DNA of 64,000 nt from an uncultured Candidatus Saccharibacteria bacterium (GTDB lineage: Bacteria; Patescibacteriota; Minisyncoccia; Phycocordibacterales; UBA1006), in NCBI GenBank assembly GCA_964601935.1, contig CAZROP010000001.1, positions 185,867 to 249,866 of the forward strand, given 5' to 3'. The notes under the pieces were generated by a model that did no database searches, had not been told where the DNA came from, and saw only the letters and a program-made list of their open reading frames with translations. The first letter of the stretch is position 1. Each line of letters begins with the position of its first letter. Made by a program: the position numbers and the translations under genes. This document shows positions 128 through 52,802 of this stretch, in pieces.

Positions 128-1336
128 CTAATTCTCTTTGATAATAGGAATACCCTTTACTTTACTGCCAGCAGCACAGTTTGTGTTACCATTCAGTCCT
201 GCCTGCTCGCTCGGTGTACCTGGTAAATAGTTACCTGTCAGTACACAGCCGCTGTGACATGCATTATCTGCATGATCTGCCTTGGTATCTTCTGGGTCAG
301 TGTTGTCTATACTATCAGAACATTCAGTACAGCTAAACGTTCCCAGTGTTCGTGTAACAGGCGAGGTTTCTGCATCAGGGTTAGTACAGGTCATCGAGAG
401 CACTGTCGAAGAACTCGTAGGCGTAAAGGTGAATGTCCGACTCGTTTGCGCCAAGTTCACTGCCTGAGAAGGCTGCCCTGTCAAATTCCATGTACATGAA
501 GTTCCGGCCACAGGAGTCACAGTATAATTCACAGTAATTGTCTGAGAAACCGTGTTATAGGGAGGCGTTGACTGCCTACAAGCCCCATTCCAACCACTTG
601 TCGTCCCTGCAATCTCTACTTCAAAGGAATCACGCACAAGCACGGCCTTGAACAGGCTACCTGCAAAGTCGATAAATGACAAGCCGCCCCATCCTATGGG
701 TGTAGCACAGTCAGCAGGTGACGCAACGAGACCCGCAGCATTCCATGCATGCCCCTGACCTAGGTATGATCCTGGTACTCCTGCTATTTGCGGGAATCTC
801 ACTGCAAAACTGACTGGACACGCTGTCGTTGCTGATGATGCGGGCATACTTGCGTTATCAAAGTATATACAGCCATTCCAGTTCCCATGCGCAGTTACAT
901 TAGACCAGCCAAATGACGACTGCATCGGAGACAATGCGCGGGCGGTACCTGTAAGTTTATACCCTGTTCCATCCGTCACTAACCGTGAAGGAACAGCTGC
1001 ACTGACTGGTCCTTGGCAGGAAGGACCAATGATCAAATCTGCTTGGTTAAAACTGATCCACCCTATATTGGGCGACCAGGCATACCCAGAACCAAGCCCA
1101 GTCGTTGCATCAAACGTAACACCATAGAGAGAGGATCCTGGCTCCTCTACATCGGTTGGATATCCAGCAGAATCCATTTGTTTACTACTGAGTTTGATCC
1201 ATCCTGTAGTCCATGACCATGCCCAACCATGGAGCAACAAATTAGTAGAAGGAGTCTGCGCAAAGGCAAATGTTCCCCACGCCAGAGTAATAATGAGAGT
1301 AATTGCGAAAGTGAGCTTTTTCATAAAATAGTACAA
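128..1336 (-). CDS. secreted repeat protein of unknown function (signal peptide, aromatic G-x-A-W / G-W-I repeats, Cys-containing C-terminus)
   Basis: 402-aa ORF. It has an N-terminal MKKLTFAITLIITLAWGTFAFA-Q signal. Repeats are HGWAWSWTTGWIKLS, GYAWSPNIGWISFN, GHAWNAAG and IGWGGLSFIDF. Confidence 0.6.
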   Translation of the reverse strand: MYYFMKKLTFAITLIITLAWGTFAFAQTPSTNLLLHGWAWSWTTGWIKLSSKQMDSAGYPTDVEEPGSSLYGVTFDATTGLGSGYAWSPNIGWISFNQADLIIGPSCQGPVSAAVPSRLVTDGTGYKLTGTARALSPMQSSFGWSNVTAHGNWNGCIYFDNASMPASSATTACPVSFAVRFPQIAGVPGSYLGQGHAWNAAGLVASPADCATPIGWGGLSFIDFAGSLFKAVLVRDSFEVEIAGTTSGWNGACRQSTPPYNTVSQTITVNYTVTPVAGTSCTWNLTGQPSQAVNLAQTSRTFTFTPTSSSTVLSMTCTNPDAETSPVTRTLGTFSCTECSDSIDNTDPEDTKADHADNACHSGCVLTGNYLPGTPSEQAGLNGNTNCAAGSKVKGIPIIKEN

Positions 1337-6444: not shown

Positions 6445-7464
6445 CTAGCCCCCAATTACGATATCTTCAAGCGACTGAAATGCATTCTGTGCATTTGATA
6501 TTTGCTGCTTCAGACTTGATCGGTATTGATCCAGGAATTCCACCAGAGTGATCCCTTCTACCTCTACCTGAGTGGCAGCATTCGGGCCTACGTAACGCCA
6601 GTGCCAGGGTTCTGCACGGAATCCTGTGATAGCTTCTTTGCCCTCTGGATAACTGTTTACAAAACCAAATTCAGCAGCATTTTTATACAACCACTCTATT
6701 TGCTTGCCAGCTGTTAATGGAACACGCTTTCCATCTTCTTCTGCTGCGAAATCTGCTGATGTTCCCAGATTATGTTCGGACCGCCCTGGCAATGCTACAA
6801 TACGATGAGCATACTCTCCTATACGACGCACCATGACCTGTAGCAAGTAATCCTGCGAGTCTTCACCACGGTAGGATGAGGTTACATACAGGTTAACACC
6901 GTCATCTGCTGCTGCCTGGTACATACGCTTTAGCGCATGATAAGTTTCTGCCTCCAGACATACAGGACCATTAGAAGGTATCGAATTATCTAGTTCAAGG
7001 ACCAAATTGTTGGGTACATATTCACTCGGCAAGACACGTGCTTTATTCACATTATCCAGTCGGAAATCTGCTACATCGCGACTGGTCTGACCTACGGGGC
7101 AGTACAAAAAGGCATACAGCGAATTAATATTTTTCTTGGTCTCAGGTGCGAGCCATGCCTTGCCTGGTCCCTGGTGAACATTCAGAGTATCCCGCGTAAT
7201 TTTATCCCACACCCCAGAAGCATTGAGATCATACCCTCGCGAGCTCAGATAATGTTGAATTATCAGAATCTGCTGACGAGTGAGTTTTGAAGCATCTGAT
7301 GGAAAAGAAAAAGATGAATCCGTAGCTCTCCACGCATCCACCAATGAATAAGGTATATTCAAATATAATCGAGGATCAGTCTCGGTGTTCGTCACAGCAA
7401 AAGATATTCCTGGAACAGCCAATACCAAACAACATACAATAGAACACATCCGACGATACAACAT
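6445..7464 (-). CDS. D-alanyl-D-alanine carboxypeptidase, VanY/M15B-like, with a peptidoglycan-binding domain
   Basis: 339 aa with a signal/anchor. It has a PG_binding-like stretch IIQHYLSSRGYDLNASGVWDKITRDTL and zinc motifs PGRSEHNLGTSADF and EPWHWRYVG. Confidence 0.8.
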   Translation of the reverse strand: MLYRRMCSIVCCLVLAVPGISFAVTNTETDPRLYLNIPYSLVDAWRATDSSFSFPSDASKLTRQQILIIQHYLSSRGYDLNASGVWDKITRDTLNVHQGPGKAWLAPETKKNINSLYAFLYCPVGQTSRDVADFRLDNVNKARVLPSEYVPNNLVLELDNSIPSNGPVCLEAETYHALKRMYQAAADDGVNLYVTSSYRGEDSQDYLLQVMVRRIGEYAHRIVALPGRSEHNLGTSADFAAEEDGKRVPLTAGKQIEWLYKNAAEFGFVNSYPEGKEAITGFRAEPWHWRYVGPNAATQVEVEGITLVEFLDQYRSSLKQQISNAQNAFQSLEDIVIGG

Positions 7465-16932: not shown

Positions 16933-17016
16933 ATATAATTCTATTGTATAGAGATTGATGCACTATTCAATCATGTCTGTGGATAGAGGTTCTAAGTTTC
17001 TTGGTTATACCAGAAT

Positions 17017-17047
17017 AAAAGCCTTACTGCATCGCAGTAAGGCTTTT
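17017..17047 (-). terminator. hairpin terminator downstream of the 17067..17927 gene
   Basis: aaaagccttactgc / atc / gcagtaaggctttt forms a perfect 14-bp stem. Confidence 0.7.
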
Positions 17048-17066
17048 CTTAAAGTATCTACATACA

Positions 17067-17927
17067 CTACAGCGTGCAGAGAACGTACAGATTGAATGCT
17101 TGTGGATCCAGTGTCCAGGTAGCGACTACCTTCAGATTCACCATATGAATCTTCCAATTACGCTGTATGCCTGCCTGGATCTTCCATATATTAGGACCTT
17201 CTTTTTGATAAAAGCATCCTACGTCGGCAAATATCCTGTAGTCTTTCAATCCCGGAGCTGGTGCAGATATGAACACTCCTACCTCGCTATTTTTCGCCGA
17301 AATAAGTGCGAAAAATCTCTTATCTTCATACTGCATCGCGTATCCCCAACCAATAACTGTATCAGGTCGTACCCAGCCTGCGAATGTAAACCGGTTCCAT
17401 ACTGATATGACGTTGCGACCGAACTGACCTGCAAGATGGTATTCGGGCTTGAAGTTACGCAAGTGTACTCCTCCTAACACCCTGCCCGCTGAGTATTGAT
17501 ATTGTGCTCGCAGACCGGGAGCTTTCCCGGTAATCCGACTTTGTGCGGTTACTTCGAATTGACCACTACCTGTTACAGGCAACGGTCGCAACAGTGCAGC
17601 CGCAGGTGATGGAATATCCCCCAGGCTAAATGTCCAATGTGCATTGGGTTTCCAGTTAATACCCAGACTCAACGCTGGTTGCACACCCGAATCCCAGTAA
17701 CCCCAACCAGCCAGCAACACGTTGCCACCTAGCGACACCTCAAATCCGATACCAATTCTAATATCCCCAACTGTGGAGTTTTTGGTAGTGTCGAGCCGGT
17801 ATTGGTTCCCACCCAGAATACCAGCATATATATCAAGCTTCTTCCCCAAGGTATCAATAACAGTCAGTTGCGCGATTGCTGTATACCCTAGGCATACGCA
17901 AAGAATAGAAGAAATGATACTTTTCAT
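17067..17927 (-). CDS. secreted beta-strand-rich protein (porin/OMP-like pattern), unknown function
   Basis: 286 aa with the signal MKSIISSILCVCLGYTAIA-Q. The body is rich in Gly and aromatics with alternating hydrophobicity. Confidence 0.5.
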   Translation of the reverse strand: MKSIISSILCVCLGYTAIAQLTVIDTLGKKLDIYAGILGGNQYRLDTTKNSTVGDIRIGIGFEVSLGGNVLLAGWGYWDSGVQPALSLGINWKPNAHWTFSLGDIPSPAAALLRPLPVTGSGQFEVTAQSRITGKAPGLRAQYQYSAGRVLGGVHLRNFKPEYHLAGQFGRNVISVWNRFTFAGWVRPDTVIGWGYAMQYEDKRFFALISAKNSEVGVFISAPAPGLKDYRIFADVGCFYQKEGPNIWKIQAGIQRNWKIHMVNLKVVATWTLDPQAFNLYVLCTL

Positions 17928-19008
17928 TACACATGGTTTTTAATATTGAACAATCTTGCTTAAAAAACAAAACCGAACAAAACCAAGGAATAGGATCTAG
18001 AGCGCGAACGAATCCGCACACTATCCTATCGATGTAATGAAAAAATATTTTTCCTCTCCTCTCTGTATAGCTATGTGCCTCATACGGAACAACAATGTAT
18101 ACGTCATTGTAACAGTCTGGTGGCGGATGATAGATATCCGCAACAATTATCGTAGTAATATCCATACTGATTACTGTACTCATTTGTGCCGAAACACGTA
18201 GCGAACACACAACCGATAGAGATACCAACATCCCATGTCGCAGTATATGTCCTTGATTCAGAAGCAATTGAAATCCTTGGAGAATACCTAACCGTTTGGT
18301 TGGTAACTCCCTTACCAACAATCTCTCAGTTTTCGTCAGAGTACCTGTCAGCGATTTTTTGGTTCGTCGGACAAGTGTTTCTGCTACTATGCTGAAGTAA
18401 TGATCCTCAAACTTTCGTTTCAGGACCAGCCACAAGAACAAGGGCCAGAGTAATGTAACAAACAGAAGCTTGATAGGACTACCTGCGAATCGCCGGAAGT
18501 ATGGGTTTTCGTACACCCACAAACAGAACAATAATCCAACGAACGGCAATCCAAACAAGTACTGACGAAGCAACCAACTCAAGAGAGCTAACCATGCTGC
18601 TTTCCAATTAATCGGCTCCGCATCATCCAATTCTGGAAAATACTTGCTGCGTGCAGCATCAATGCTTGCCCGAGACGGGTTCTGTCTTTCCATAACTCGC
18701 ATGACTTCATTCTGTAGCAGTATAAATGCTGGTAGATTATCGGATCCCGTAAGATCATACCAGATCTGTTTCGCCGTATACAAATCGGCGAAATAACAAT
18801 CAGGGGTGTAGCTGTAGTATGCTGGTTCTGTGGCAGTAATCTTATGCAGTCTGCCCTTCCAGAACCTTTGAAGAGAGTCTATTGCAAACTGTGCGGTACC
18901 TGACGGTATCTCGTTTGCAGGTATATTGTATGTGTGCCAAAAACTCGTTGGCATACCAGTGTTCCAGATTAGCATCAGAAACACGGCAAGTTTGATAAAC
19001 TTTTTCAT
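17854..19008 (-). CDS. hypothetical membrane protein
   Basis: 384-aa ORF with an N-terminal signal/anchor and central TM cluster (LALLSWLLRQYLFGLPFVGLLFCLWVY, LLFVTLLWPLFLWLVL). Its 3' end overlaps the next gene by 74 nt. Confidence 0.45.
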   Translation of the reverse strand: MKKFIKLAVFLMLIWNTGMPTSFWHTYNIPANEIPSGTAQFAIDSLQRFWKGRLHKITATEPAYYSYTPDCYFADLYTAKQIWYDLTGSDNLPAFILLQNEVMRVMERQNPSRASIDAARSKYFPELDDAEPINWKAAWLALLSWLLRQYLFGLPFVGLLFCLWVYENPYFRRFAGSPIKLLFVTLLWPLFLWLVLKRKFEDHYFSIVAETLVRRTKKSLTGTLTKTERLLVRELPTKRLGILQGFQLLLNQGHILRHGMLVSLSVVCSLRVSAQMSTVISMDITTIIVADIYHPPPDCYNDVYIVVPYEAHSYTERRGKIFFHYIDRIVCGFVRALDPIPWFCSVLFFKQDCSILKTMCNEKYHFFYSLRMPRVYSNRATDCY

Positions 19009-19127
19009 GTTTCTGATGTTTTGAATTAAGAAATGTAATAATTATTGGGTTCATACTACGTCAGTCTGGATATATGTCAATAACTATCCTTATGAGTTTC
19101 GAGACTGTTATTAACCCAGCTCATCAC

Positions 19128-19154
19128 AAAAAACACCCTATTCGGGTGGTTTTT
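19128..19154 (-). terminator. intrinsic terminator directly after rplK
   Basis: Minus strand caccc-gaata-gggtg followed by T6. Confidence 0.6.
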
Positions 19155-19174: not shown

Positions 19175-19600
19175 TTATTCCGCGATCTTTACTCCCATCG
19201 AACGACAGGTTCCTTCTATCATCTTTATCACAGCATCGATGTCATTTGCATTAGAATACTGCATTTTCTCCTGTGCAATTTCTTCCATCTGCTTGCGAGT
19301 GATCTTACCTACGAATGATGAAGCATTTTTACCACTGCCTTTTGCTATGCCCAGTTTTGCTTTTATTAGCGCTGACATAGGAGAAGACTTGATAACATAA
19401 TCAAAAGAACGATCATCGTATGCCTGGAGAATAACATTCATGAGCATACCGTTTTTATCAGCGGTTTCTGCATTGAATTGCTTGATAAATTCACCGATAT
19501 TGACTCCCGCACCGCCCAATACTGGTCCCAAGGGAACTCCTGGAGCAGCCTTGCCACCTGGTACTACTAATTTGATTGTTTTTGTTGCTTTTTTTGCCAT
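19175..19600 (-). CDS. rplK: 50S ribosomal protein L11
   Basis: 141 aa with MAKKATKTIKLVVPGGKAAPGVPLGPVLGGAGVNIGEFIKQFNAET. Confidence 0.96.
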   Translation of the reverse strand: MAKKATKTIKLVVPGGKAAPGVPLGPVLGGAGVNIGEFIKQFNAETADKNGMLMNVILQAYDDRSFDYVIKSSPMSALIKAKLGIAKGSGKNASSFVGKITRKQMEEIAQEKMQYSNANDIDAVIKMIEGTCRSMGVKIAE

Positions 19601-19779
19601 AACACTGCTATATAATTACCTCTTCGTTGATTCGGCAGGTGAGAAGCATGGACCCTAGAAGAGGTTGTAAGGTACCATTCCTGACGAACTAAGATATTCA
19701 CTATAATGCCATATATTTAAATAAATGCAATATTTTAAACCTGCAATTACCGATGAGTATTGAAAATATTTTGATTATA

Positions 19780-20325
19780 TTATTTTTCTCGCCCACCCTT
19801 AAGAACCTCTGCGTACCATACAAGCTCCTTAACCATTAAAGCAATCTTTTCCTTGTATGAAAGGTCGATGATTTGACCATCAACATCAAACAAATTTTGA
19901 GCCACAGGAAACGGTAAAGAAGGGGAAATGGGGACCATACCCAAAGTGATAAGTGTCGGCAGGATAGCCTCCGCCATTCTTGAACCACCCCATTTCCCAC
20001 TTGATACACCAACAATAGCAACAGGCTTCTTTATATACTCCTCATCAAGAGAATCAATAAGTATTTTAAGCTCCCCAGGTATACCACGATTATATTCTGG
20101 ACTAACGATAATAAGTCCATCTGCTCTAGCCATAATATCTTGCCACGGTTTTACCATTTCGGAATATCCTACAGTTTTTCCAAACAGAAAATCTCGCACA
20201 TCAACAAATTGAGTTTCAAACGCGTTTAGATCGGATATTTCTTTGAAGACGTACTGAGCAACCTTTTCAGAAACGCGACCCTCACGCGCAGTACCAAGTA
20301 TTATGGGTATAAAAAGTTTCTTCAT
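19780..20325 (-). CDS. NAD(P)H-dependent FMN reductase (flavodoxin-like fold)
   Basis: 181 aa with ILGTAREGRVSEKVA and LIIVSPEYNRGIPGELKILIDSL. Confidence 0.75.
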   Translation of the reverse strand: MKKLFIPIILGTAREGRVSEKVAQYVFKEISDLNAFETQFVDVRDFLFGKTVGYSEMVKPWQDIMARADGLIIVSPEYNRGIPGELKILIDSLDEEYIKKPVAIVGVSSGKWGGSRMAEAILPTLITLGMVPISPSLPFPVAQNLFDVDGQIIDLSYKEKIALMVKELVWYAEVLKGGREK

Positions 20326-20423
20326 AAATTAATAGGTATATTATAGCTTGGATGTAGAATTTAAGTAATAAGGTTACCCTACATTCGTAGACACTCGGGT
20401 TTGCTTTTAATTATCACTACTTT

Positions 20424-20443
20424 TGCGGAGATGGCGGGATTCG
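20424..20443 (-). repeat. exact 20-nt duplicate of the tRNA-Ser 3' end
   Basis: tgcggagatggcgggattcg at 20424-20443 is identical to 20594-20613, which runs from the T-loop to the 3' end of tRNA-Ser plus 2 nt. Confidence 0.9.
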
Positions 20444-20595
20444 GTCACGCCGCATAGTCGCTCGATGCTCTCCTTCGATTCCTCAGGATCATATTCGCTC
20501 CTTGCAGCTCGACCCCTAATTCGAATCTGCCGTTTCCGTTTATCAAATATACTACAAATGCTCCTATGGGTCGCATTCATAGCATTTTGCTAATG

Positions 20596-20680
20596 CGGAG
20601 ATGGCGGGATTCGAACCCGCGAGGGGTTGCCCCCTGCTACCTTTCCAAGGTAGTGCACTCGACCACTATGCGACATCTCC
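20596..20680 (-). tRNA. tRNA-Ser (anticodon GGA), class II
   Basis: Minus-strand fold: acceptor ggagatg/catctcc, anticodon stem ctacc/ggtag with loop ttGGAaa, long variable arm, T arm gcggg-ttcgaat-cccgc. Confidence 0.9.
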
Positions 20681-20727
20681 AATCAACCTAGAGATACTAG
20701 CATAGTGTTAACGGTGTAACAATGGAA

Positions 20728-23700
20728 TTACGCTGCTTCTTGTAATTCTTCTCTTCCTTGCTCATTCAATGGAACAACTTTTGTACCGCTAGTTCTTTTA
20801 CGAGATAAAAAGTCTTTGAAATCTCTACCATTTTTTATTCGATCGACATGACTCTTTATCTGTTCATTAGTAGTACTCATTGATTCTACAACTTCTGGAG
20901 TAGTACTATTCTCCCGACCACGAGCTCTTCTTGCCAGCTGAGCTTGTATTTGCTCTGTAGTAGGACTTTTATTTTCTCTTGGTTTAGCATTTTCTATCCT
21001 TCTGCTCTGCCAAGAAGCTGTGGCTCTTTTTAGTGCAGGAGTAACGAATGCAGTACTTTGAAGCTGACCCTCCTCTTCTTTAGGTTTATCAAACACGCCA
21101 TCCCAGAAACTATCCCATCTATGTTCCTGTGTAAGGGTTTGAGATTCTGCGACGGGGGCTACATTTGCTTCTATTACACTTGATGTAGCAGAGGTTTGAT
21201 TGGTTTCTTCACCTGCAATAGGGGTATCAAACCCAAAGAATGAGGAATCATAACTCTGATTAGTAGTATTATTAATCGTCTGAGAGTTATTATCTTCAGC
21301 TTGCAGCCTATTACCTTGATTAGTATTATTAAGCTGTTCTCTATTATTTTCACCATCTCGAGCAAGAGAACGATCTCTCTGTAGAGTCCGCCTCTCATCA
21401 TTATCAGGCGTACGGCCTGGTTCTTGGTCTGGGTGTTTTTCCTTGTAGTCATCTGTCGGCCCCATAAATCGCTGGGCATGTATAGGTTGCACATGTATAT
21501 CAGTATCATATACATTAGGTGCTTCGTAGTCTATATCAAGGATTGGTTGATTCGAAAAGTTCTCACCCTGTATACGAGCCAACGAGCGTACATTGTACGG
21601 CATAGTATCTGAACCATCTCCCTCTAATACTTCTACTGCCAGTATCTGCCCTTTCAATTCGAATTTTCCATCTTCAGTCACATGAAGGAATTCAGAGTTA
21701 ACACCAGTATTCGGAATAAATGCCTTACCATTTTTATCAAATTCTATAAATACAGCACCTTTGTTACCGATACTATCACTTGTTACTAATTTTTCGCTTC
21801 CCTCGTAGAGCATTAACTTTATTTTTCCTTTTCCTACCATTTCTTTTATTTGATCTCCTGTCAGTTTATTACTACCAAATGTTGACTCATCGTTAAACAT
21901 GTCTGCAATCGACATTTCGTATCCCTTCACATTTCCATCAGCATCCCATATTACACCTGATCCATTTGGTCCTCCCCATTTTAGATCCAATTCATTGCGC
22001 GCAAATTCTTTGGTATCATAATCATAATAATTGTCCATTCGAACAGATTTGAATTCAGCTGGACGCTCTGCTCCATTATAAGAATCAAAATATGAACCTG
22101 GGACAGGTGTCTCTGTTATCGTGAATCCTTTCCCTGCTAATGCTTTCTGTATATCGTCCTGACCTATTACACCATCACCTGCGGCATCTGGTATAGAAAT
22201 GTTTACGCCATTCGGTCCTGTTAGTGCAACACCATTTCCCTGCTGCTCCAGACAGAACCCATCCGGTAGACGCACATCTGCAGATACCTTGCCATCTATA
22301 CCCTGGATGATAGAACTGTGAGACATGGTAGTCGTGCCTCCGCCTGTTATCAGATTTTTTAACTGCATCAGGAGTGTTGCCTTTTTCTCGGAATCTCGTT
22401 CTGTGAACCAACTTTCTACCAAACCCATCGTAGAATCATCTATCAATGCCCATATTTCAGCAGTTGCAATACCGAATGCAAATGATAGTGCAAATACGGC
22501 TGAACCTGTTATCGCTGCCTCTTTTGCGAGCATTGATTTCACCCCCCTCTTATGTTTAGAAATACTTTCTATCAACTCCTTTCTAGTTTTTGAAATCTCA
22601 GGATTTTCACGTGCATTTTGTAGAGCATTATTAAATTCATTACCAAGTTCTTTTTTTAATCCTGCACGTAGACGTGCCATTAGAACAGCAATTTCACGAT
22701 GTTGTGCTTCTACCTGACCCGGATCATACTGAATTAATTCTACCTTTTTAATATTACCTGACTTTATAAGATCTTCATAACGGATCAATAATTCCAGTTT
22801 TGATTCTAGGGGATACTCCTGACCAGCACGTAATTCGCTGATAATAGATTGTGCTGGTTGCAAATCCATGCTAAATTTTTCAAACTTTGCAGCAACTTTA
22901 TCATTACTATAGGTTTCTCCTGCAGCAGTGTTCTGGTAATACTGCTGTGCCTCGGTGGTTCTACGATTATACTGCGCTGATCCTGCGAATGCTCCACCTA
23001 TAACTGAACCTACGACTGGCACAGCTAATGTTGCTTCTGCTGCCTTTTTCGAAACTATTTTTGCGACTGATGCCGCAGCACCCGCGAGGACAGCCAGCGT
23101 TGTTCCATTAAACACTCTTGTGACTTTTATTTTTTCACACCATCTACCAAATCTACCTTTGTATTTCGATGATAACGAATGTTCTGCAATCGCTATTTTC
23201 AGAGAAATATGAAGTTCGTTTATATATCTAGCTTTCTCATCAGCGCTCAAACCCTCAAATAGAGACTTGACTTCTCTGCAGACCACAAAGAAATTATGAG
23301 CAGTTATTGTTTCCTGACCACCTCCTTGGATTCTGCGTAGTGTATCGAGCTGCTGATTTACTAACTCCTGATACGTAATTGTTTGACCTGTGGGTACTTC
23401 TGATCTGAAACTATCGATATCTTCCTGAGATTTCAGAAATTCTATCAAAAATGTTCTGAGATTTTCTGATACCTGTGCCTGTCGAGTTTCATTATTATCT
23501 ACATTATAGACCTTTTCACCTGCGCTCAAGATACTATCGTCACCACTAATCACACGATCAGCTGCTGATTCGTACAGTGCACGTGTTCTTGCCTCGCCAT
23601 CATCCTCACCCAAAAACACATTACGCTGTTCTGCTGTTTCCCGTAGTGCAGCAACACGGTGTTTTGCCTGTCGATACTCATGAACTATTGCATTTTTAGC

Positions 23701-23871
23701 TCTTGTGAACTGTCGTGCGATCCAGTTCTTTTTTTCTGCTGACTGTTCCTGAGCCCCTAATCGTTCTGCTGCCAATTTACGAGCATACTGTCGTTGAATA
23801 TCAGTCACATCAGCAATACCTACATTAACTTCTGTAGGTATTTCTTCAAAACTTGTTTCTCTGAGCAACAT
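20728..23871 (-). CDS. giant membrane protein of unknown function (coiled-coil N-terminus, two Gly/Ala-rich TM anchors, extracytoplasmic domain, Q/N/T-rich tail)
   Basis: 1047-aa uninterrupted ORF. The TM segments are TLAVLAGAAASVAKIV...LAVPVVGSVIGGAFAGSA and ITGSAVFALSFAFGIATAEIWALI. Confidence 0.7.
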   Translation of the reverse strand: MLLRETSFEEIPTEVNVGIADVTDIQRQYARKLAAERLGAQEQSAEKKNWIARQFTRAKNAIVHEYRQAKHRVAALRETAEQRNVFLGEDDGEARTRALYESAADRVISGDDSILSAGEKVYNVDNNETRQAQVSENLRTFLIEFLKSQEDIDSFRSEVPTGQTITYQELVNQQLDTLRRIQGGGQETITAHNFFVVCREVKSLFEGLSADEKARYINELHISLKIAIAEHSLSSKYKGRFGRWCEKIKVTRVFNGTTLAVLAGAAASVAKIVSKKAAEATLAVPVVGSVIGGAFAGSAQYNRRTTEAQQYYQNTAAGETYSNDKVAAKFEKFSMDLQPAQSIISELRAGQEYPLESKLELLIRYEDLIKSGNIKKVELIQYDPGQVEAQHREIAVLMARLRAGLKKELGNEFNNALQNARENPEISKTRKELIESISKHKRGVKSMLAKEAAITGSAVFALSFAFGIATAEIWALIDDSTMGLVESWFTERDSEKKATLLMQLKNLITGGGTTTMSHSSIIQGIDGKVSADVRLPDGFCLEQQGNGVALTGPNGVNISIPDAAGDGVIGQDDIQKALAGKGFTITETPVPGSYFDSYNGAERPAEFKSVRMDNYYDYDTKEFARNELDLKWGGPNGSGVIWDADGNVKGYEMSIADMFNDESTFGSNKLTGDQIKEMVGKGKIKLMLYEGSEKLVTSDSIGNKGAVFIEFDKNGKAFIPNTGVNSEFLHVTEDGKFELKGQILAVEVLEGDGSDTMPYNVRSLARIQGENFSNQPILDIDYEAPNVYDTDIHVQPIHAQRFMGPTDDYKEKHPDQEPGRTPDNDERRTLQRDRSLARDGENNREQLNNTNQGNRLQAEDNNSQTINNTTNQSYDSSFFGFDTPIAGEETNQTSATSSVIEANVAPVAESQTLTQEHRWDSFWDGVFDKPKEEEGQLQSTAFVTPALKRATASWQSRRIENAKPRENKSPTTEQIQAQLARRARGRENSTTPEVVESMSTTNEQIKSHVDRIKNGRDFKDFLSRKRTSGTKVVPLNEQGREELQEAA

Positions 23872-23885
23872 ACCGATATAGAAAT

Positions 23886-24233
23886 CTATTGAGACACCTC
23901 TGTCGGGGACACAGGTTCTTGCGACGATGAATTATCTGGGATGTAGAGTCTTCTGAACTCTAACATTTCTTTCGTAAGAAGCTCTGCCATATTAGGAACA
24001 TGTGCTGCGCAGAATTCCTGAATTTCAGCATCTGATGCTGTTTCTGTCATAGCATCGAATGTATCTAGTTTGTCTTTCGGTAATGCTGTAAAAATAGCAA
24101 CCTGAATACGCGTTTCCAATTGCTGCATAAAATCAGCTTTCATTTCGGCATAAATTTCCGGCTCTAGATCGCCAAAATTTTTGTCGTGCAGTATCTCGTC
24201 TATAAAATTTCCTAAAATTTCATCAGTGTTCAT
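23886..24233 (-). CDS. small acidic helical protein, partner of the giant protein (DUF5663-like from memory)
   Basis: 115 aa, 14 nt upstream of the 1047-aa gene. It aligns by eye with the ORF at 55096..55419. Confidence 0.55.
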   Translation of the reverse strand: MNTDEILGNFIDEILHDKNFGDLEPEIYAEMKADFMQQLETRIQVAIFTALPKDKLDTFDAMTETASDAEIQEFCAAHVPNMAELLTKEMLEFRRLYIPDNSSSQEPVSPTEVSQ

Positions 24234-24370
24234 AAGTACTATAAGGTGGAATTATACAATAACACCATCAGTATACACTGAACATAGATTATTGTATTGT
24301 GTATAACATTATAGTATTTATCGAAGAAACATTTGAAGATTGTGAATATAACTAAGTATAAAAGTATAAA

Positions 24371-24400
24371 AAACAAAACACCCTTACGGGTGTTTTGTTT
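24371..24400 (-). terminator. hairpin terminator after the 73-aa gene
   Basis: aaacaaaacaccc / ttac / gggtgttttgttt forms a perfect 13-bp stem. Confidence 0.7.
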
Positions 24401-24419
24401 TAGGTATTCTCAGAGAGAA

Positions 24420-24641
24420 TTACTGAGCAGGTACAACAACGTCTGTTGATACTTCAACAGGCTGTACTGCTGGCGCAGGCTGGATGTCTGTAACTGGTGC
24501 TCCCTCTACTGGAACTTCTTCTACAGCCTTGTTCTTCTTTCCGGTTACGATGATAATGATGATTATCACGATTACTGCAACAGCGATAAGGCTAGTTACG
24601 ATTGTATTTCCTTTGATCATAATAAATATAGATTCTTTCAA
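24420..24641 (-). CDS. small single-pass membrane protein with a Pro/Val-rich tail
   Basis: 73 aa with the TM segment IVTSLIAVAVIVIIIIIIV. It has its own terminator. Confidence 0.5.
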   Translation of the reverse strand: MKESIFIMIKGNTIVTSLIAVAVIVIIIIIIVTGKKNKAVEEVPVEGAPVTDIQPAPAVQPVEVSTDVVVPAQ

Positions 24642-24792
24642 ATGTTTTTAATAAAGTTGACATACCCTTTCCCCACAACAGAAGGGTGGATACGTATCTA
24701 TCGTATATCTTTACCCCAAAAATGCAACGGTCGTACGTGGAAAACAATAATTCCCGAGAAATGTCTACTTCGAGACCTCTGAAAATCCTTAT

Positions 24793-26382
24793 TTATACAT
24801 CGACCAACGGAGGTTTTGGACGGTACTGCAACGCATCCAGTATATGCCGGTCTTCAATAGTAGGAGACGATTCCATATCTGCAATCGTACGACCAATACG
24901 TATTACGCGATGATAGGCACGCGGTGACAAGTGCAGTTTTTCCGCGCTTTTCATCAATAACGTTCGTGCGCTATCTGACAAACCTACGGAATTCATATCA
25001 CGCGCCTGAATCAATGCATTAGGTGATCGTAATCCTGCAGACCCTGCACGTGTACTACCAAACGCACGTGCCTGTATGATATTTTGCCTGATCTGTGCAC
25101 TAGTTTCTCCTATAGAACTGTTATCATGCAAAGTTTCGTAGGAAATATGCTCTACCGGAACCCAGAGATCAATACGATCAACCAGAGGTCCTGATAGCTT
25201 TTTCCTATATTTTCGTATCTGAATTTCGCTACAGGTACAGCGTTTGACCCGTGACCCTGCAAATCCACATGGACAAGGATTCATAGCTGCAACTAATATA
25301 AAATTAGCAGGAAATTCTATTGTTCCTCGGGCACGCGATACAGTTACCACCTTATCCTCCAGCGGTTGCCGTAAACTTTCTAATACTTTTAGGTCAAATT
25401 CAGGGAATTCATCCAAAAACAACACACCGCGGTGCGCGAGACTCACTTCGCCAGGGCGTGGCACCGTGCCCCCACCTACTAATGCCACATAACTACTAGT
25501 ATGGTGCGGACTACGAAATGGCGGGTAATTAATAAATGACCCTTGTAGTGTTCCTGCGACTGAATGAATCCCTGTTACCTCTATGGCATCATCCAGTGAT
25601 AACTGAGGTAATAACCCAGTAAACGCACGGGCGAGCATGGTTTTGCCCGTTCCGGGCGGTCCGAACAAGGCAATACTATGGCCGCCTGCGGCGGCTATTT
25701 CTAACGCCCGTTTTGCCGATTCCTGACCTCGCACTGTCGATATGTCAGGATACTGTGGTGATTGTCGTAATAATGACTCGTCGAACTGGGCTATGGTAAT
25801 ATTCTGTACCTCTGTAGGTAGTTTTTGTTCCCGCATCATGCGTTCGAAACCATTCGTATCAATATGCGCTACAATATCCCGCAGATGATGTACGCCATAT
25901 ACGGTGATACCTTCCACTACCGATGCCTCATTGGCGTTTTCTTGCGGCACATATATGTCGGTATATCCCTGGTTCCGAGCCTCGATAGTCAACGGTAACA
26001 CCCCGCGTACTGACTGAATATCTCCATTCAGTGATAACTCACCTAAAAACAAGGACTTGTCACACTCACCCTGTATCGATCCGCTCGCTATCAAATACCC
26101 TATAGCTATTGCAATATCGTAATATGACCCTTCTTTGCGTAATTCTGCGGGCGATAACGATACAATTGTTTTTTGATTAGCATGTTTTGGCGACGGAAAA
26201 CCGCTATTATGCAACGCGGTGCCCACGCGCCCTCGAGATTCATCCACTGATTTATCAGGTACACCAATAATATCGAATTTATTAAGAGTATTATGAACAA
26301 TATCTACCTCGACCGTAACAACACTACCCGTAATACCTCGTGGCTGCGCCGAATGTACCCGTGCAAATGACGGCTTTTTCAT
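24793..26382 (-). CDS. YifB/ComM-family Mg-chelatase-like AAA+ ATPase
   Basis: It has a Lon-like N-terminal domain, Walker A GPPGTGKTM, Walker B VLFLDEF and a Cys cluster NPCPCGF. The start is set at MKKPSF (26382) because a terminator hairpin (26421-26444) lies inside the longer ORF. Confidence 0.9.
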   Translation of the reverse strand: MKKPSFARVHSAQPRGITGSVVTVEVDIVHNTLNKFDIIGVPDKSVDESRGRVGTALHNSGFPSPKHANQKTIVSLSPAELRKEGSYYDIAIAIGYLIASGSIQGECDKSLFLGELSLNGDIQSVRGVLPLTIEARNQGYTDIYVPQENANEASVVEGITVYGVHHLRDIVAHIDTNGFERMMREQKLPTEVQNITIAQFDESLLRQSPQYPDISTVRGQESAKRALEIAAAGGHSIALFGPPGTGKTMLARAFTGLLPQLSLDDAIEVTGIHSVAGTLQGSFINYPPFRSPHHTSSYVALVGGGTVPRPGEVSLAHRGVLFLDEFPEFDLKVLESLRQPLEDKVVTVSRARGTIEFPANFILVAAMNPCPCGFAGSRVKRCTCSEIQIRKYRKKLSGPLVDRIDLWVPVEHISYETLHDNSSIGETSAQIRQNIIQARAFGSTRAGSAGLRSPNALIQARDMNSVGLSDSARTLLMKSAEKLHLSPRAYHRVIRIGRTIADMESSPTIEDRHILDALQYRPKPPLVDV

Positions 26383-26420
26383 AGATAGCCAGTACTGTAA
26401 CACAAATAATTGTAATATCA

Positions 26421-26444
26421 AAAACACCCTCTATAGGGTGTTTT
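26421..26444 (-). terminator. hairpin terminator after the Tyr/Asn/Cys-rich gene
   Basis: aaaacaccct / ctat / agggtgtttt forms a perfect 10-bp stem. Confidence 0.7.
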
Positions 26445-26461
26445 ATCAAATTAAACTAGTA

Positions 26462-26899
26462 TTACCACTCGTAATAATTATAGTCGTAGCTGGAATTATT
26501 GTAGTTATTATTATAATTACGCCCACAATAGTAACATCGGTTAGCACTTGAATTATTACGTCGCGCATTTCTCTGCTGATTACATGCGCGATTAGTACAG
26601 ACTACTTGATCATTGTATCCGCCGTAGTTGCGATAATTATTGGTATTACACGAATATCCACAATTTGATTGGTATCGTGTTGTAGGGCGATAGTTATTAC
26701 AGCCACTATAACCACAATTACCGTTATAATACCCATTATTATAGCTGTAATCTATACTAAAGTCGACGTAGCTATAGTTACTACCATAATAGTAATCATC
26801 GTAATAACAATTAGAGTAATAATCACATGCAAAGGTAAGGCTCGGTAGTACGAAGCCGCCTGCGAGAATGATCATGAATGTTGATATAATCTTTTTCAT
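26462..26899 (-). CDS. secreted low-complexity Tyr/Asn/Cys-rich protein
   Basis: The signal MKKIISTFMIILAGGFVLPSLTFA is followed by ~120 aa dominated by Y, N, C, G and S (CDYYSNCYYDDYYYGSNYSY...). Confidence 0.55.
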   Translation of the reverse strand: MKKIISTFMIILAGGFVLPSLTFACDYYSNCYYDDYYYGSNYSYVDFSIDYSYNNGYYNGNCGYSGCNNYRPTTRYQSNCGYSCNTNNYRNYGGYNDQVVCTNRACNQQRNARRNNSSANRCYYCGRNYNNNYNNSSYDYNYYEW

Positions 26900-27157
26900 A
26901 TGAGTTAAGTGTATAGCTATATTATAAAAATGCAATAGATATTGATGTTATCGCGTATTTATCAACCAGTGATAGGGCGACAAGTATATCCGAGAAGTAC
27001 TAAAAACCATACGTATTTTAGAATCGTTTCGTGACTTGTAAGTTCTAAAACTACAAATGCGCAACGATACTCTATTTACTAAACTTGATATATATGGCGA
27101 TATATTCATATCATAGTGAATAATACACTATATTATTAATATGTCAAATTATAAAAC

Positions 27158-27187
27158 AAAAAACTCCTTTTTAATAAGGAGTTTTTT
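27158..27187. terminator. bidirectional terminator downstream of nusG
   Basis: aaaaaactcctt / 6-nt loop / aaggagtttttt. Confidence 0.7.
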
Positions 27188-27205
27188 GTTTCTCTTGCAT
27201 AAGTA

Positions 27206-27751
27206 CTACAATGCCTTGATATGCGTAAAATCCAGATCTACAGGAGTTTCGCGACCAAACATCGAGATAATGACTCGTGCACGTCCTGTTTCTGGGGATA
27301 GCTCGCTAATAACCCCATACTGGTCCTTGAACGGTCCTTCGAGCACACGAACCTTGTCATGTACCGCAAAGTCCGATTGATAGGTCACAGCGGTGTTTTC
27401 TGCCCGCTGCATGATGCGATTGAGCTCGTCCTCGGTAATCGGCACAGGCTGCGTTCCTGACCCCACAAAGCCCGTCACACGCGGTGTATTACGCACAATG
27501 TACCAGGAATCGTCGTCTACGATCATTTCTACTAGAACATACCCTGGATAGACCTTTTCATCCACAGTCTGCTTCTTTGCGCCCTTTATTTTTACCGTTT
27601 TTTCATGAGGAACCAGTACACTGAATATTTTATCCTGATATCCCAGAGATTCCACACGCTGACGCAAATTACGCGCCACAGCATCCTCGTAACCAGAATA
27701 AGTGTGTACTACATACCATGCACGCTGCCCTGAACTTTGTTGGCGAGACAT
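27206..27751 (-). CDS. nusG: transcription termination/antitermination factor NusG
   Basis: 181 aa. It has WYVVHTYSGYEDAV (NGN domain) and a C-terminal KOW motif (DKVRVLEGPFKDQYGVISEL). Confidence 0.95.
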   Translation of the reverse strand: MSRQQSSGQRAWYVVHTYSGYEDAVARNLRQRVESLGYQDKIFSVLVPHEKTVKIKGAKKQTVDEKVYPGYVLVEMIVDDDSWYIVRNTPRVTGFVGSGTQPVPITEDELNRIMQRAENTAVTYQSDFAVHDKVRVLEGPFKDQYGVISELSPETGRARVIISMFGRETPVDLDFTHIKAL

Positions 27752-39011: not shown

Positions 39012-39992
39012 ATGCTATACTATAGCCATATTATAGTTATGTCAAGTCATGCTGCTTTGCGCCAATTCTTGGAACATTTAGAAATCGAACGTGGTCGATC
39101 CTCGCTCACTCTGCGTAACTATGAACATTATTTGACCACACTGTTCAATGTGATGAAGATCGAGTCTGTGGCTCAGATCGATGCAGATGTTATTCGCGAG
39201 TTTCGGTTGTGGTTGAATCGTCAGCCAGGCGCACGAGCACGAGGTCAGACAGATTCTCTGATGAAACGACGCACTCAAAATTACTACCTCATCGCTCTGC
39301 GATCATTCCTACGGTATGCGATGAAACGGGGTTGGACGCAGTTTGCTCCTGACAATATCGAACTCGCCCGTGTCGGTGATCGTCACATTGATATGATATC
39401 TGCTGATGAGCTTTCCAGAATAATGTCATCATTTGATACGACTACTCGTTCAGGTGTTCGGGACCGAGCTATACTCGAACTCCTCTACTCGACCGGATTG
39501 CGTGTATCAGAATTGGTGTCACTAAACTGTGACCTGGATCTATCCCGCGATGAACTGTCGATTCGCGGTAAGGGTGACAAGGTGCGACTCGTATTCGTTT
39601 CACCAGATGCTCGCATATGGTTGAAAAAATACCTCGGACTTCGTGCCGATGCACAGGATGCTCTGTTCGTCGATGAGCGTGCCAGCGCCGCAGAGTCATC
39701 GGATCGCGAGGCACGCCTAACGCCTCGATCTGTGGAACGTATTGTCGCCGCCGCCGCGGTACGTGCTGGTATCGGAAAGAAGGTGACCCCACATATCATT
39801 CGTCATTCGTTCGCGACAGGTCTATTGGAAAATGGCGCGGACATTCGTTCGGTGCAGACACTGCTCGGTCATGCGCATATCGGGACAACGCAGATCTACA
39901 CGCATGTCACTGACAAACATCTAAAAGATGTATTCAAAAAATTTCACAAACCGACAGATACCTCGGTTACAGAAAAAACCTCTGACACGTAG
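39012..39992 (+). CDS. xerC: tyrosine site-specific recombinase, XerC/XerD family
   Basis: It has an SSLTLRNYEHYL core-binding domain and catalytic motifs LLYSTGLRVSEL, HIIRHSFAT and LLGHAHIGTTQIYTHV. The start may be 39039 (MSSHAAL). Confidence 0.9.
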   Translation: MLYYSHIIVMSSHAALRQFLEHLEIERGRSSLTLRNYEHYLTTLFNVMKIESVAQIDADVIREFRLWLNRQPGARARGQTDSLMKRRTQNYYLIALRSFLRYAMKRGWTQFAPDNIELARVGDRHIDMISADELSRIMSSFDTTTRSGVRDRAILELLYSTGLRVSELVSLNCDLDLSRDELSIRGKGDKVRLVFVSPDARIWLKKYLGLRADAQDALFVDERASAAESSDREARLTPRSVERIVAAAAVRAGIGKKVTPHIIRHSFATGLLENGADIRSVQTLLGHAHIGTTQIYTHVTDKHLKDVFKKFHKPTDTSVTEKTSDT

Positions 39993-50732: not shown

Positions 50733-52802
50733 ATGAGTGAACGCACGCCCGGAGAAGAAATCCTAGAAAACGCCGAGAATACTCCAGAAAGATTAATAAA
50801 TGCTCATATATTGAACGATATAGAGTTACAGTATGCATTACAGTTATTCCCTGTAGAAACTCTAGAATCTGTGCAAGAGAAAAGTCACGAAAAGATAGTA
50901 GATGAGCGAGTAACAATGCTGAACCGTTCGTGCATGTATGACGAGGTCAAGCCAGGAGAGGAGGGTATGCATCGACCAGAGCGTGCATATACTCCATTTT
51001 CGAAACTACGGTTCATAGCACCTCCTACTGAAGAGGTTGCAAATGAACTGCGATCACTGGGGGTGGTTCATGTGAAACAGTCTCTCGAGGCAACGAGACA
51101 GGCCCAAGATCTAGCACAATTTACCGAAATGGTCGAATGGTACGAAACACAAGAGCAGGCAAAACAGGAATGTTTAGAAGTTCTTCGTTCTTTACAAGAG
51201 AGCGCACAAGATGATTTACATGAGCTGGCTTTGCTCTTTCAGAAGATAGAGACTTCTTCTTCGGAGGCTGGTCACATGAATTACGAGCACGCGCAGAAAT
51301 GGGCGTACCAACTACTGATGGGAGGGCCTCTCACGAACAGTGTACAGTCGAGCGGAGGAGGACTGCGCGATACCTTCGAGGCATACATTTCTAATGTAGA
51401 GAACCTAAGGCAGCCGGCATACTACACCGATTTGTTGGTTGAAATACAAAATCACCAACGTGCTATAGAAATACTGAAGAGTTTGCCAGCGGCTACAGAC
51501 CCAGGATTGCAGGAGAAGTATAGAATCTGGCGGCAGATGAATACTCTTTTCAGAGGAGATGTAGAGGATAAGGTCTATACGTTCATGACCGAACAGGTAG
51601 GATATAATCAGACAAAACAGGGTATCCACATCCACAATCGTGTACCCAAAAGCTATCAACCTACACGTGGTCAGTATTCTCCTAAATACGGGTACAATGA
51701 TGCAAAGAATAAGCAACAAGAACTAATGCCTCGGGTGGAGCTTGCTCTGGAGAGCGCAACTCGATTCGTCGATACGACAGTCGCTCGTGCGCAGATGGAG
51801 TACGAAGTACTGCATCTGCCCGCGACAGAAACAAAATACGTTTCACCTGATGACGCGGCGAAGTATCTGAAACACGAGAAAGACAAGCGAGTAATAGAAG
51901 CACGAAAAGCAGCTGAGTTATTAGGTCGTAGACCAGAGACGTTTGCGCGGACTGTGGTTGATGCGGGGAACTTTACAGGAGAAGTCAGCTTTACTCTGAG
52001 GCCAAGAGATATGTTACCTGATATACATGCTGAGATACAAGAGCTAGAGAGACAAATCGTGGATTTGGGGATCGAGATAGGTAAATTGACGAAATCGGCT
52101 GATTCCATGAAAGATTCATTGGAAAAGGGTAGGGCGTATGATAGTTCGTCTAAACTTTATAAATTGGTTGTGTCACCTCCTATTGTTAACACAACCTGGA
52201 CTGAGCATGGCAACAAGCTTGATGATATAAAAAACTTAACATCAAAAAAGACAGACATAGAGCAAAATCTCGAGGTATTGCAAGCAGAATTAGAAACACA
52301 ATCACGACACCAATCTAATATATCGTTTGACTGGGAAAATGAGTGTATAAATATGATTACTAGAGGTGAATACCTGGGTTATGATATGAAACAGGGCGAA
52401 GTATCGGATATAGGGGCAGATTTTGATGTGGTGGCGTTCAAAAGATCACTATATAATCGTCTGTCTGGTGGTAGTAAGTCTATTTCAGAATTAGAACTGC
52501 GTAATTTGCAGAATGATATTGTTACATTCCTAGGCTTGGTATCCCGATGGGGGTTGTCGCCTGCAGAACAAACAGCATTAGACCATTATGATTCTGTGTT
52601 GCAGCGAGTCAGTAAAGGCGAATCGCGTACTCCAGAATGGTTACAGGGCGTGCCATTTGATGCGAAACAGGTGTACGAACATGCACTCGATGTTGTAATG
52701 CCTGCACAGGAAGCAGCTTTGGGTGTTGTAGATGGAAATGTATCTGTTGAAGTAGTGGCTGACGCGTATATGCGGTTGTACGGCGATAATAATGAAAAGT
52801 AA
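50733..52802 (+). CDS. large soluble hypothetical protein (coiled-coil-rich ORFan)
   Basis: 689-aa uninterrupted ORF with no TM segment and no recognised motif. It has its own terminator at 52825-52861. Confidence 0.55.
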   Translation: MSERTPGEEILENAENTPERLINAHILNDIELQYALQLFPVETLESVQEKSHEKIVDERVTMLNRSCMYDEVKPGEEGMHRPERAYTPFSKLRFIAPPTEEVANELRSLGVVHVKQSLEATRQAQDLAQFTEMVEWYETQEQAKQECLEVLRSLQESAQDDLHELALLFQKIETSSSEAGHMNYEHAQKWAYQLLMGGPLTNSVQSSGGGLRDTFEAYISNVENLRQPAYYTDLLVEIQNHQRAIEILKSLPAATDPGLQEKYRIWRQMNTLFRGDVEDKVYTFMTEQVGYNQTKQGIHIHNRVPKSYQPTRGQYSPKYGYNDAKNKQQELMPRVELALESATRFVDTTVARAQMEYEVLHLPATETKYVSPDDAAKYLKHEKDKRVIEARKAAELLGRRPETFARTVVDAGNFTGEVSFTLRPRDMLPDIHAEIQELERQIVDLGIEIGKLTKSADSMKDSLEKGRAYDSSSKLYKLVVSPPIVNTTWTEHGNKLDDIKNLTSKKTDIEQNLEVLQAELETQSRHQSNISFDWENECINMITRGEYLGYDMKQGEVSDIGADFDVVAFKRSLYNRLSGGSKSISELELRNLQNDIVTFLGLVSRWGLSPAEQTALDHYDSVLQRVSKGESRTPEWLQGVPFDAKQVYEHALDVVMPAQEAALGVVDGNVSVEVVADAYMRLYGDNNEK

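Follow-up and report, generated by a model that had tools for sequence, protein, structure and literature searches.

We analysed a 64,000-nt stretch of DNA, called the window below, from an uncultured Candidatus Saccharibacteria bacterium (assembly GCA_964601935.1, contig CAZROP010000001.1, positions 185,867 to 249,866). All coordinates are positions in this window, and rplK and the two genes that follow it lie on the minus strand. We found that the second of these genes probably specifies a Sec-exported porin-type channel, encoded in a two-gene unit and belonging to a vertically inherited family apparently confined to the Candidate Phyla Radiation (CPR, Patescibacteria). The first gene encodes a 384-aa membrane protein (17854..19008), hereafter the partner, and the second a 286-aa barrel protein (17067..17927). 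Both open reading frames (ORFs) had been proposed in a preliminary description of this DNA; they were confirmed with ATG starts, and the two peptides quoted there were both found in the translation. As far as could be seen from sequence searches, the pair represents a previously undescribed porin-fold family with a new partner, apparently confined to CPR/Patescibacteria.

The structure of the barrel protein was predicted with AlphaFold2 (AF2), using an alignment of 65 family members that also served for the sequence statistics. With this alignment, AF2 gave a predicted local distance difference test score (pLDDT) of 92.2 and a predicted template modelling score (pTM) of 0.84, and the five models ranged from 89.3 to 92.2 in pLDDT; a run on the single sequence gave a poor model (pLDDT 33). 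The model consists of the signal peptide as an N-terminal helix, followed by 16 antiparallel strands in succession, joined by very short connections. All 16 strands come from a single chain, the entire mature chain forms the barrel, and the first strand begins about 10 residues past the cleavage site. Nearly all loops are cut to 2-7 residues in a mature chain of 266 residues, and the L2-type latching loop has only 2 residues. A 28-residue insert with short helices (aa 107-134, 17526..17609) sits exactly between strands 5 and 6. This L3-like insert, a candidate constriction loop, holds the most conserved motif of the family, the nearly invariant RPxPxTxxGQFE, in which R114, P115, P117, G122, F124 and E125 are conserved in at least 90% of the aligned members. 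Four residues on the lumen side and in the insert, R57, R114, E125 and D235, are nearly invariant. When the model was compared with the PDB using Foldseek, the top 50 matches were all 16-stranded general porins with a probability of 1.00, and the fold matches in BFVD were only porins annotated on viral metagenome contigs.

The export signal of the barrel protein was also conserved. The first 19 residues, MKSIISSILCVCLGYTAIA (17871..17927), form a Sec signal peptide with predicted signal peptidase I cleavage between A-I-A and Q20, so the cleavable signal ending in A-Q noted in the preliminary description is real; the closest homologue aligns from residue 4, and the signal recurs across the 65-member alignment. 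The signal peptides have a median length of 20 residues, the -1 position is A, S or G in 64 of the 65 members, and the -3 residue is small in most. The first mature residue (+1, Q20; 17868..17870) is Gln in all 65. No lipobox was found in the signal peptides of the 65 members. The mature protein (aa 20-286 with the stop, 17067..17870) is predicted to form a minimal 16-stranded porin-type barrel.

We then asked whether the aligned sequences themselves carry the marks of a membrane-embedded wall. In every strand, hydrophobic and polar faces alternate family-wide, with a mean Kyte-Doolittle hydropathy of +1.49 on the hydrophobic face and -0.59 on the polar face (z 5.8 against within-strand shuffles). 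Across the 65 sequences, aromatic residues make up 29% of lipid-facing strand ends, 17% of mid-strand positions and 11% of the lumen face, and charged residues account for 3.9% of positions facing the lipid and 20.6% of those facing the lumen, a five-fold depletion. The last strand, strand 16 (FNLYVLCTL here, 17070..17096), is a candidate beta-signal. It carries the motif [VIL]-[NKR]-[GA]-Y-[LV]-[FM]-[IVL]-x-[LIF]-COOH, which stands at the extreme C-terminus in 52 of the 65 members and is hydrophobic at -1, -3, -5 and -9, and 55 members have Tyr at -6. The chain ends in Leu or Ile in 55 members and in Phe in 8. The periodicity, aromatic girdles and charge asymmetry are independent of the model and argue for a transmembrane barrel of the outer-membrane protein type rather than a soluble beta protein. 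The product is thus, as a high-confidence structure prediction, a 16-stranded porin-type transmembrane barrel. The suspicion that this CPR genome encodes an outer-membrane-type beta-barrel was strongly upheld by the 16 strands of the model, the porin matches, the membrane-type wall and the CPR family: the predicted fold was a barrel, the CPR homologues did not prove to have another known fold, and the contig did not prove to come from a diderm lineage.

From these features we infer the following course of events. The barrel protein would be exported by Sec and cut by signal peptidase I before the invariant Gln. The 266-residue mature chain would fold into a minimal 16-stranded barrel with a lipid-facing outside and a polar lumen, which the conserved insert between strands 5 and 6 would probably narrow, with R57, R114, E125 and D235 as presumed contributors to the constriction. 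Most likely, the barrel would let solutes pass passively through a lipid bilayer outside the cytoplasm. The partner, a predicted four-transmembrane (TM) protein of the cytoplasmic membrane, may help to target, anchor or assemble the barrel.

A single-sequence HMMER scan of 1.84 billion representatives yielded 74 relatives at E <= 1e-3, nearly all of them 270-300 aa long, and the alignment holds 65 of these; because a single sequence was used, these 74 cluster representatives are a lower bound. The window barrel had no match in Pfam or NCBIfam at E <= 0.1 and none in PHROGs, and the 65 members gave only weak Pfam matches, one to OprB (6e-4) and one to OMP_b-brl (9e-4). Searching the PDB sequences with the family profile returned noise and no porin, and the partner profile likewise returned noise. 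Word-index homology searches found the barrel protein itself, one partner homologue and three family members only. No paralogue of the barrel was present within the window, each locus holding one copy, and tblastn found no relative on plasmids or phages, which ruled out a phage or plasmid origin.

We next examined the lineage of the organism. The L11 protein encoded by rplK was 76% identical to that of a 'Nomurabacteria' metagenome-assembled genome (MAG) and 52-58% identical to those of Saccharibacteria MAGs, and the window contains small-genome housekeeping genes, peptidoglycan enzymes and many orphan ORFs. Every phylum-labelled family member belonged to Paceibacterota or the 'Patescibacteria group', with none from a diderm phylum, and the CPR contigs that carry members range from 132 kb to 1.1 Mb. 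The nearest L11 relatives and the family labels thus bear out the earlier assignment of the organism to the CPR. Four member loci read UGA as sense, namely L053, L055 (on a 1.1-Mb contig), L058 (on a 566-kb contig) and L063, where recoding in L058/L059 and L063/L065 was called from ORF coverage only. There were 128 in-frame TGA codons in L055 and 42 in L053, and TGA was never a terminator in either. In L055, TGA aligned with Gly at 10 of 15 positions of a UvrA paralogue when compared with a non-recoded homologue, and it also fell within the DnaK motifs DLGGGTFD and GDTHLGG. TGA in L055 is therefore read as Gly, which indicates genetic code 25, the code of Gracilibacteria/Absconditabacteria. 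TrmB-family regulators are encoded divergently from or near the barrel at 7065..7808 of L053, 9050..9817 of L055 and 4742..5494 of L063, and may hint at sugar-responsive regulation in the code-25 loci. The UvrA paralogue recurs near the barrel in L053, L055 and L057.

The gene pair was compositionally ordinary for its surroundings. Its two genes had GC z-scores of +0.8 and -0.6, codon-usage z-scores of -0.5 and -0.1, and a tetranucleotide distance at the 48th percentile. The same DNA had been assembled independently in Logan run SRR13208906, with 100% identity over 14,596 nt, and on a 377-kb contig the barrel is flanked on both sides by CPR housekeeping genes. In five further loci, which belong to one clade (L061, L062, L066, L068 and L070; GC 0.39-0.46, contigs up to 882 kb), the barrel lies in a fixed block with the order atpA-atpG-atpD-atpC, an unknown 273-aa gene, uppP/mazG on the opposite strand, the barrel, groES-groEL and mltG; the 273-aa protein had no Pfam match. 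Ordinary composition, independent assembly, synteny, single copy number and the lack of plasmid or phage relatives together indicate an endogenous gene. Judged by this genomic context, the barrel gene is vertically inherited in the CPR and is no recent import, misassembly or artefact. Horizontal acquisition, which had been offered as one explanation for an unexpected barrel, was accordingly not borne out, as GC, codon usage and tetranucleotides were ordinary and the gene elsewhere belongs to conserved core-genome synteny.

The 384-aa ORF had been described as a membrane protein, and this proved correct: hydropathy revealed four TM-like segments, and conserved homologues exist. The protein comprises an N-terminal anchor, a loop domain of about 120 aa, a TM2-TM3 hairpin with a SWLL..Y...LP core, a basic loop of about 55 aa, a fourth hydrophobic segment, a variable region and a conserved G[FY].R...P[IV]P[WL] end. 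Four loci have a homologue of its conserved part (aa 1-342, 17983..19008) immediately upstream of the barrel gene: L046 (38% identity, E 7e-92), L052 (E 6e-14), L056 from Paceibacterota (E 5.6e-11) and L073 (profile E 2e-22). With the window included, 5 of 22 distinct loci thus have the partner next to the barrel on its upstream side. The possibility that the partner-linked barrels form one clade was rejected, since they were scattered over the barrel tree, which is poorly resolved. The partner ORF had no match in Pfam, NCBIfam, PHROGs or the PDB, and a metagenome scan with an alignment of two partner sequences gave no match. The pair as a whole has its closest relative in L046, JAHZTO010238513.1, a 2.3-kb contig of GCA_020049755.1, an assembly with more than 238,000 contigs. 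A hydrophobic segment of the partner ends in ...RVSAQ both in the window and in L046.

The two ORFs overlap by 74 nt (17854..17927). The preliminary description was right that this overlap is real and in different frames (the starts are offset by 1081, or 1 modulo 3), but it does not stand as a meaningful feature. The partner homologues in L046 and L052 stop 2-3 residues after the P-I/V-P-W/L motif, and the homologue in L056 also overruns into the barrel gene but with an unrelated tail. In the window, the extra 42 residues at the C-terminus of the partner (with the stop, 17854..17982), which run on across the spacer and into the barrel gene, show no conservation and have a GC content of 0.325 compared with 0.42-0.44 in the rest of the ORF. 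These results indicate that the overlap is read-through of the spacer, and a conserved dual-coding feature was rejected on the same grounds.

The pair is bounded by signals of its own. Upstream lies rplK (19175..19600), identified by L11 Pfam domains (E 6e-23 and 1e-21) and by TIGR01632 above its cut-off, and followed by an intrinsic terminator hairpin (19134..19148), CACCCGAATAGGGTG and then a T-run; both the gene and its terminator had been recognised before and were confirmed. This hairpin sets rplK apart from the two-gene unit. Between it and the partner start codon is the best candidate sigma-70-like promoter of the region, TTGACA-16-TAGTAT (19053..19080), a consensus match at 10 of 12 positions. 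Downstream of the barrel gene, an intrinsic terminator (17017..17047) has a perfect 14-bp stem, a 3-nt loop and a U-run; the fold of 16995..17070 reached -26.2 kcal/mol (z -4.81), a value equalled by none of 200 shuffles. Judged by these signals, the locus is a self-contained two-gene unit of candidate promoter, partner, barrel and terminator. The public gene call for the barrel (P0001, 260 aa) begins at an internal TTG, which affects window positions 17849..17927, and therefore lacks the conserved signal peptide. This internal start apparently avoids the ORF overlap, and the family alignment backs the ATG at 17927 as the start.

It had also been proposed that the pair occupies the slot where rplA is expected. 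We built an L1 profile from L1 proteins and scanned CPR loci within 6 kb on either side. The results showed that rplA directly followed rplK in 28 of 28 non-CPR loci and in 0 of 16 CPR loci, Saccharibacteria included. No rplA was detected anywhere in the window with this profile, which does detect a CPR L1 in L047, and in the closest relative (L002) genes other than rplA follow rplK. Loss of L1 has been published for a subgroup of Parcubacteria, overlapping lineages without the anti-Shine-Dalgarno motif. The framing thus did not hold, and displacement of rplA by the pair was rejected. Shine-Dalgarno cores were present upstream of 2 of the 44 ATG-start genes of the window, below the random background of 0.108, and this near-absence fits the published overlap of Parcubacteria lacking L1 and the anti-Shine-Dalgarno motif. 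TGA was rare as a stop codon (3 of 44 window genes).

Several other features of the window were recorded. The nusG-rplK cluster is split by about 7 kb (19600..27751), a gap that holds a ChlI/ComM-like ATPase, DUF5663, a 1047-aa orphan, a tRNA and an FMN reductase. An XerC/D-type tyrosine recombinase (Phage_integrase, E 5e-41) is encoded at 39012..39992, about 20 kb from the pair. Large orphan ORFs lie at 20728..23871 (1047 aa), 50733..52802 (689 aa), 52969..55047 (692 aa), 61210..63438 (742 aa) and 128..1336 (402 aa). None of the five had a PHROG match, and the four scanned against Pfam (all except the 742-aa ORF) had no match there either. The adjacent 689- and 692-aa ORFs are unrelated to each other.

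A porin-type channel raises the question of which membrane it could occupy, and several points weigh against our interpretation. CPR bacteria have been described as monoderms whose porins were lost along with the outer membrane, and loss of porins and SLH domains has been reported for the Chloroflexi/CPR/Dormibacteraeota clade. A literature search found no report of porin-like proteins in the CPR. In the window of about 64 kb and in about 200 kb of member flanks, reaching about 10 kb to either side of each barrel, no BamA/Omp85-type gene was seen, and no outer-membrane biogenesis gene turned up among the window parts scanned. We know of no BamA-like assembly factor in the CPR. The barrel is thus left with no known membrane and no known insertase. 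In addition, it has no sequence similarity to any porin family in Pfam, NCBIfam or the PDB-sequence profile search, and the family seems, from the sequences recovered, to be rare relative to CPR diversity. Porins usually end in Phe or Trp, whereas this family ends in Leu or Ile. The structure is a prediction, barrel closure and the position of the L3-like insert included. Finally, no partner was found adjacent, within the flanks, at 17 of the 22 distinct barrel loci, which makes the role of the partner uncertain; it may be an ancestral gene that lies elsewhere in those 17 genomes.

Two locations were considered. We lean, at somewhat less than even chances, towards an outer layer belonging to the CPR cell, either lipid-containing or built as a barrel lattice, since the housekeeping synteny and the conserved beta-signal-like C-terminus argue for a structural component of the CPR envelope. 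The outer membrane of a Gram-negative host is a second candidate, rated only slightly lower; the epibiotic lifestyle, the code-25 members with Gammaproteobacteria-preying relatives, and vesicles argue for it. A smaller share of the probability falls to other locations.

The host location corresponds to an explanation in which the barrel is a feeding pore: the epibiont would insert its Sec-exported barrel into the host outer membrane, possibly through surface contact or vesicles, and so create a nutrient conduit toward the attached CPR cell. According to the literature, CPR bacteria are obligate epibionts with unknown nutrient acquisition, and the cultivated relatives of the four code-25 members all prey on Gram-negative Gammaproteobacteria, one such epibiont being surrounded by vesicles of about 20 nm. 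The barrel in L057 also lies near patatin and SLT genes, which have been proposed as a host-attack toolkit. Sec export in a monoderm releases a protein at the cell surface, and the barrel has minimal loops and no SLH or other anchoring domain. A precedent is Neisseria PorB, a porin that is transferred into target-cell membranes. However, the genomic contexts are housekeeping (atp, groESL, uppP, rplK, proS) rather than secretion or attack loci, the strongly conserved C-terminal motif suggests a cognate assembly machine, and unaided insertion of a 16-stranded barrel through the lipopolysaccharide leaflet from outside is biophysically difficult. Moreover, the hosts of the member lineages, including that of the window organism, are not known. 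Overall, we regard the feeding pore as rather unlikely, though worth serious consideration.

The remaining explanations fared worse. The porin-like model might over-interpret an amphipathic sequence, and the product might be a secreted, cell-surface or lipid-binding beta protein: the fold is known from prediction alone with no experimental structure, the single-sequence model was uninformative, porin families gave no sequence match, and the organism has no known outer membrane. We consider this improbable, because AF2 was confident in all five alignment-based models, the periodicity, girdles and one-sided charge depletion are those of a membrane wall, the family has a uniform length of about 280 aa, and its two weak Pfam matches are OprB and OMP_b-brl.

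Pore-forming colicins suggest another parallel, as their immunity proteins are inner-membrane proteins with 3-4 TM segments. The barrel could likewise be a secreted pore-forming toxin and the partner its immunity protein, given the tight linkage of a polytopic membrane protein to an exported pore-former under a candidate promoter and terminator of their own. This is very improbable: 17 of the 22 barrel loci lack an adjacent partner; the contexts are core-genome and syntenic, each locus holds a single copy, and the polymorphism and mobility that usually mark toxin loci are missing; in known beta pore-forming toxins the barrel is made up of many protomers, unlike a single-chain 16-stranded porin fold; and no association of the PADLOC or PHROG type came to light, with a negative PHROG scan. 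Foreign DNA, whether by recent transfer from a diderm such as Bacteroidota or through a chimeric or misbinned contig, is hardly credible, for although the signal ends and invariant +1 Gln resemble the Bacteroidota 'Q-rule' (an N-terminal pyroglutamate formed from +1 Gln), the local GC of 0.45 is slightly above the 0.39-0.40 of the immediate neighbours, and most family members are unlabelled metagenome proteins, the composition of the pair is ordinary, the arrangement is identical in the independent assembly, CPR housekeeping genes stand on both sides on the 377-kb contig, members occupy long CPR contigs, four loci use code 25, synteny is kept across diverged genomes, and no labelled diderm member and no plasmid or phage relative was found.

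The preferred reading, a Sec-exported porin-type channel native to the CPR, would have wider consequences. It is conceivable, though we would not put it at even chances, that genuine porin-type barrels are an old, vertically inherited component of Patescibacteria, in which case either some CPR lineages may not be strictly monoderm or epibiotic CPR may implant a porin in their hosts. In the first case, a lipid or protein outer layer would have been kept or rebuilt and would be assembled without a recognisable beta-barrel assembly machine (BAM); in the second, the porin of an epibiotic CPR cell would be a feeding conduit in the host outer membrane. Both cases would make the four-TM partner a barrel-handling factor of a new kind, and assembly without BamA would mean a new route of beta-barrel membrane insertion. 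The CPR account for a large share of bacterial diversity, and how they take up nutrients from their hosts is an open question. The barrel family, which like its partner is unannotated in Pfam and NCBIfam, provides a molecular handle on it: where the barrel is located, which factor inserts it and what it lets through. The family is likewise relevant to scenarios for how Terrabacteria went from diderm to monoderm, in which the barrel could be either a relic porin or a re-invention.

Finally, we compared the barrel with known systems. The general porins of diderm outer membranes considered were OmpF/OmpC/OmpU, Omp32, PorB and the porins of Rhodobacter and Rh. blastica, together with the specific porins OprP and OprB. 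Like them, the CPR barrel has a Sec signal peptide cleaved by signal peptidase I, a lipid-facing hydrophobic belt with aromatic girdles around a polar lumen, a predicted single chain of 16 antiparallel strands, and a C-terminal strand of alternating hydrophobicity. The insert that is longest and most conserved falls between strands 5 and 6, the place from which L3 of classical porins folds into the lumen as a constriction. Unlike them, the CPR barrel shows no detectable sequence homology and stands outside every curated porin family, among them Porin_1, Porin_4, OprB and Porin_O_P of Pfam and those of NCBIfam. Its mature chain has 266 residues compared with 289-411 aa for the matched porin chains, its loops are nearly all 2-7 residues long, and it begins with an invariant Gln, while its last residue is Leu or Ile instead of Phe or Trp. 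Its gene is found in CPR bacteria, a group regarded as having neither an outer membrane nor BAM, and some family members are paired with a four-TM protein for which porin operons have no equivalent.

Veillonella OmpM1 (PDB 8bym/8byt) represents OmpM, the porin and outer-membrane tether of diderm Terrabacteria. As the CPR are placed in Terrabacteria, OmpM is the obvious candidate ancestor if the barrel is a relic. However, the CPR barrel has no SLH domain or periplasmic stalk, its mature protein starts with the barrel, and it is less similar to OmpM than to proteobacterial porins. Beta pore-forming toxins assemble the hairpins of many protomers into one barrel and have a soluble monomer form, in contrast to the single-chain CPR barrel. 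The toga of Thermotoga and SlpA of Deinococcus offer a functional analogy only, in that a barrel lattice could house a barrel in a 'monoderm-looking' cell. Both genera encode BamA and are classed as diderms, and the CPR barrel shows no domain for lattice formation or anchoring. Atypical envelopes whose outermost layer is a beta-barrel array with little or patchy lipid are described in PMC10160955. Taken together, the CPR barrel falls outside the curated porin families by sequence, but by its predicted fold it would work like a general porin.

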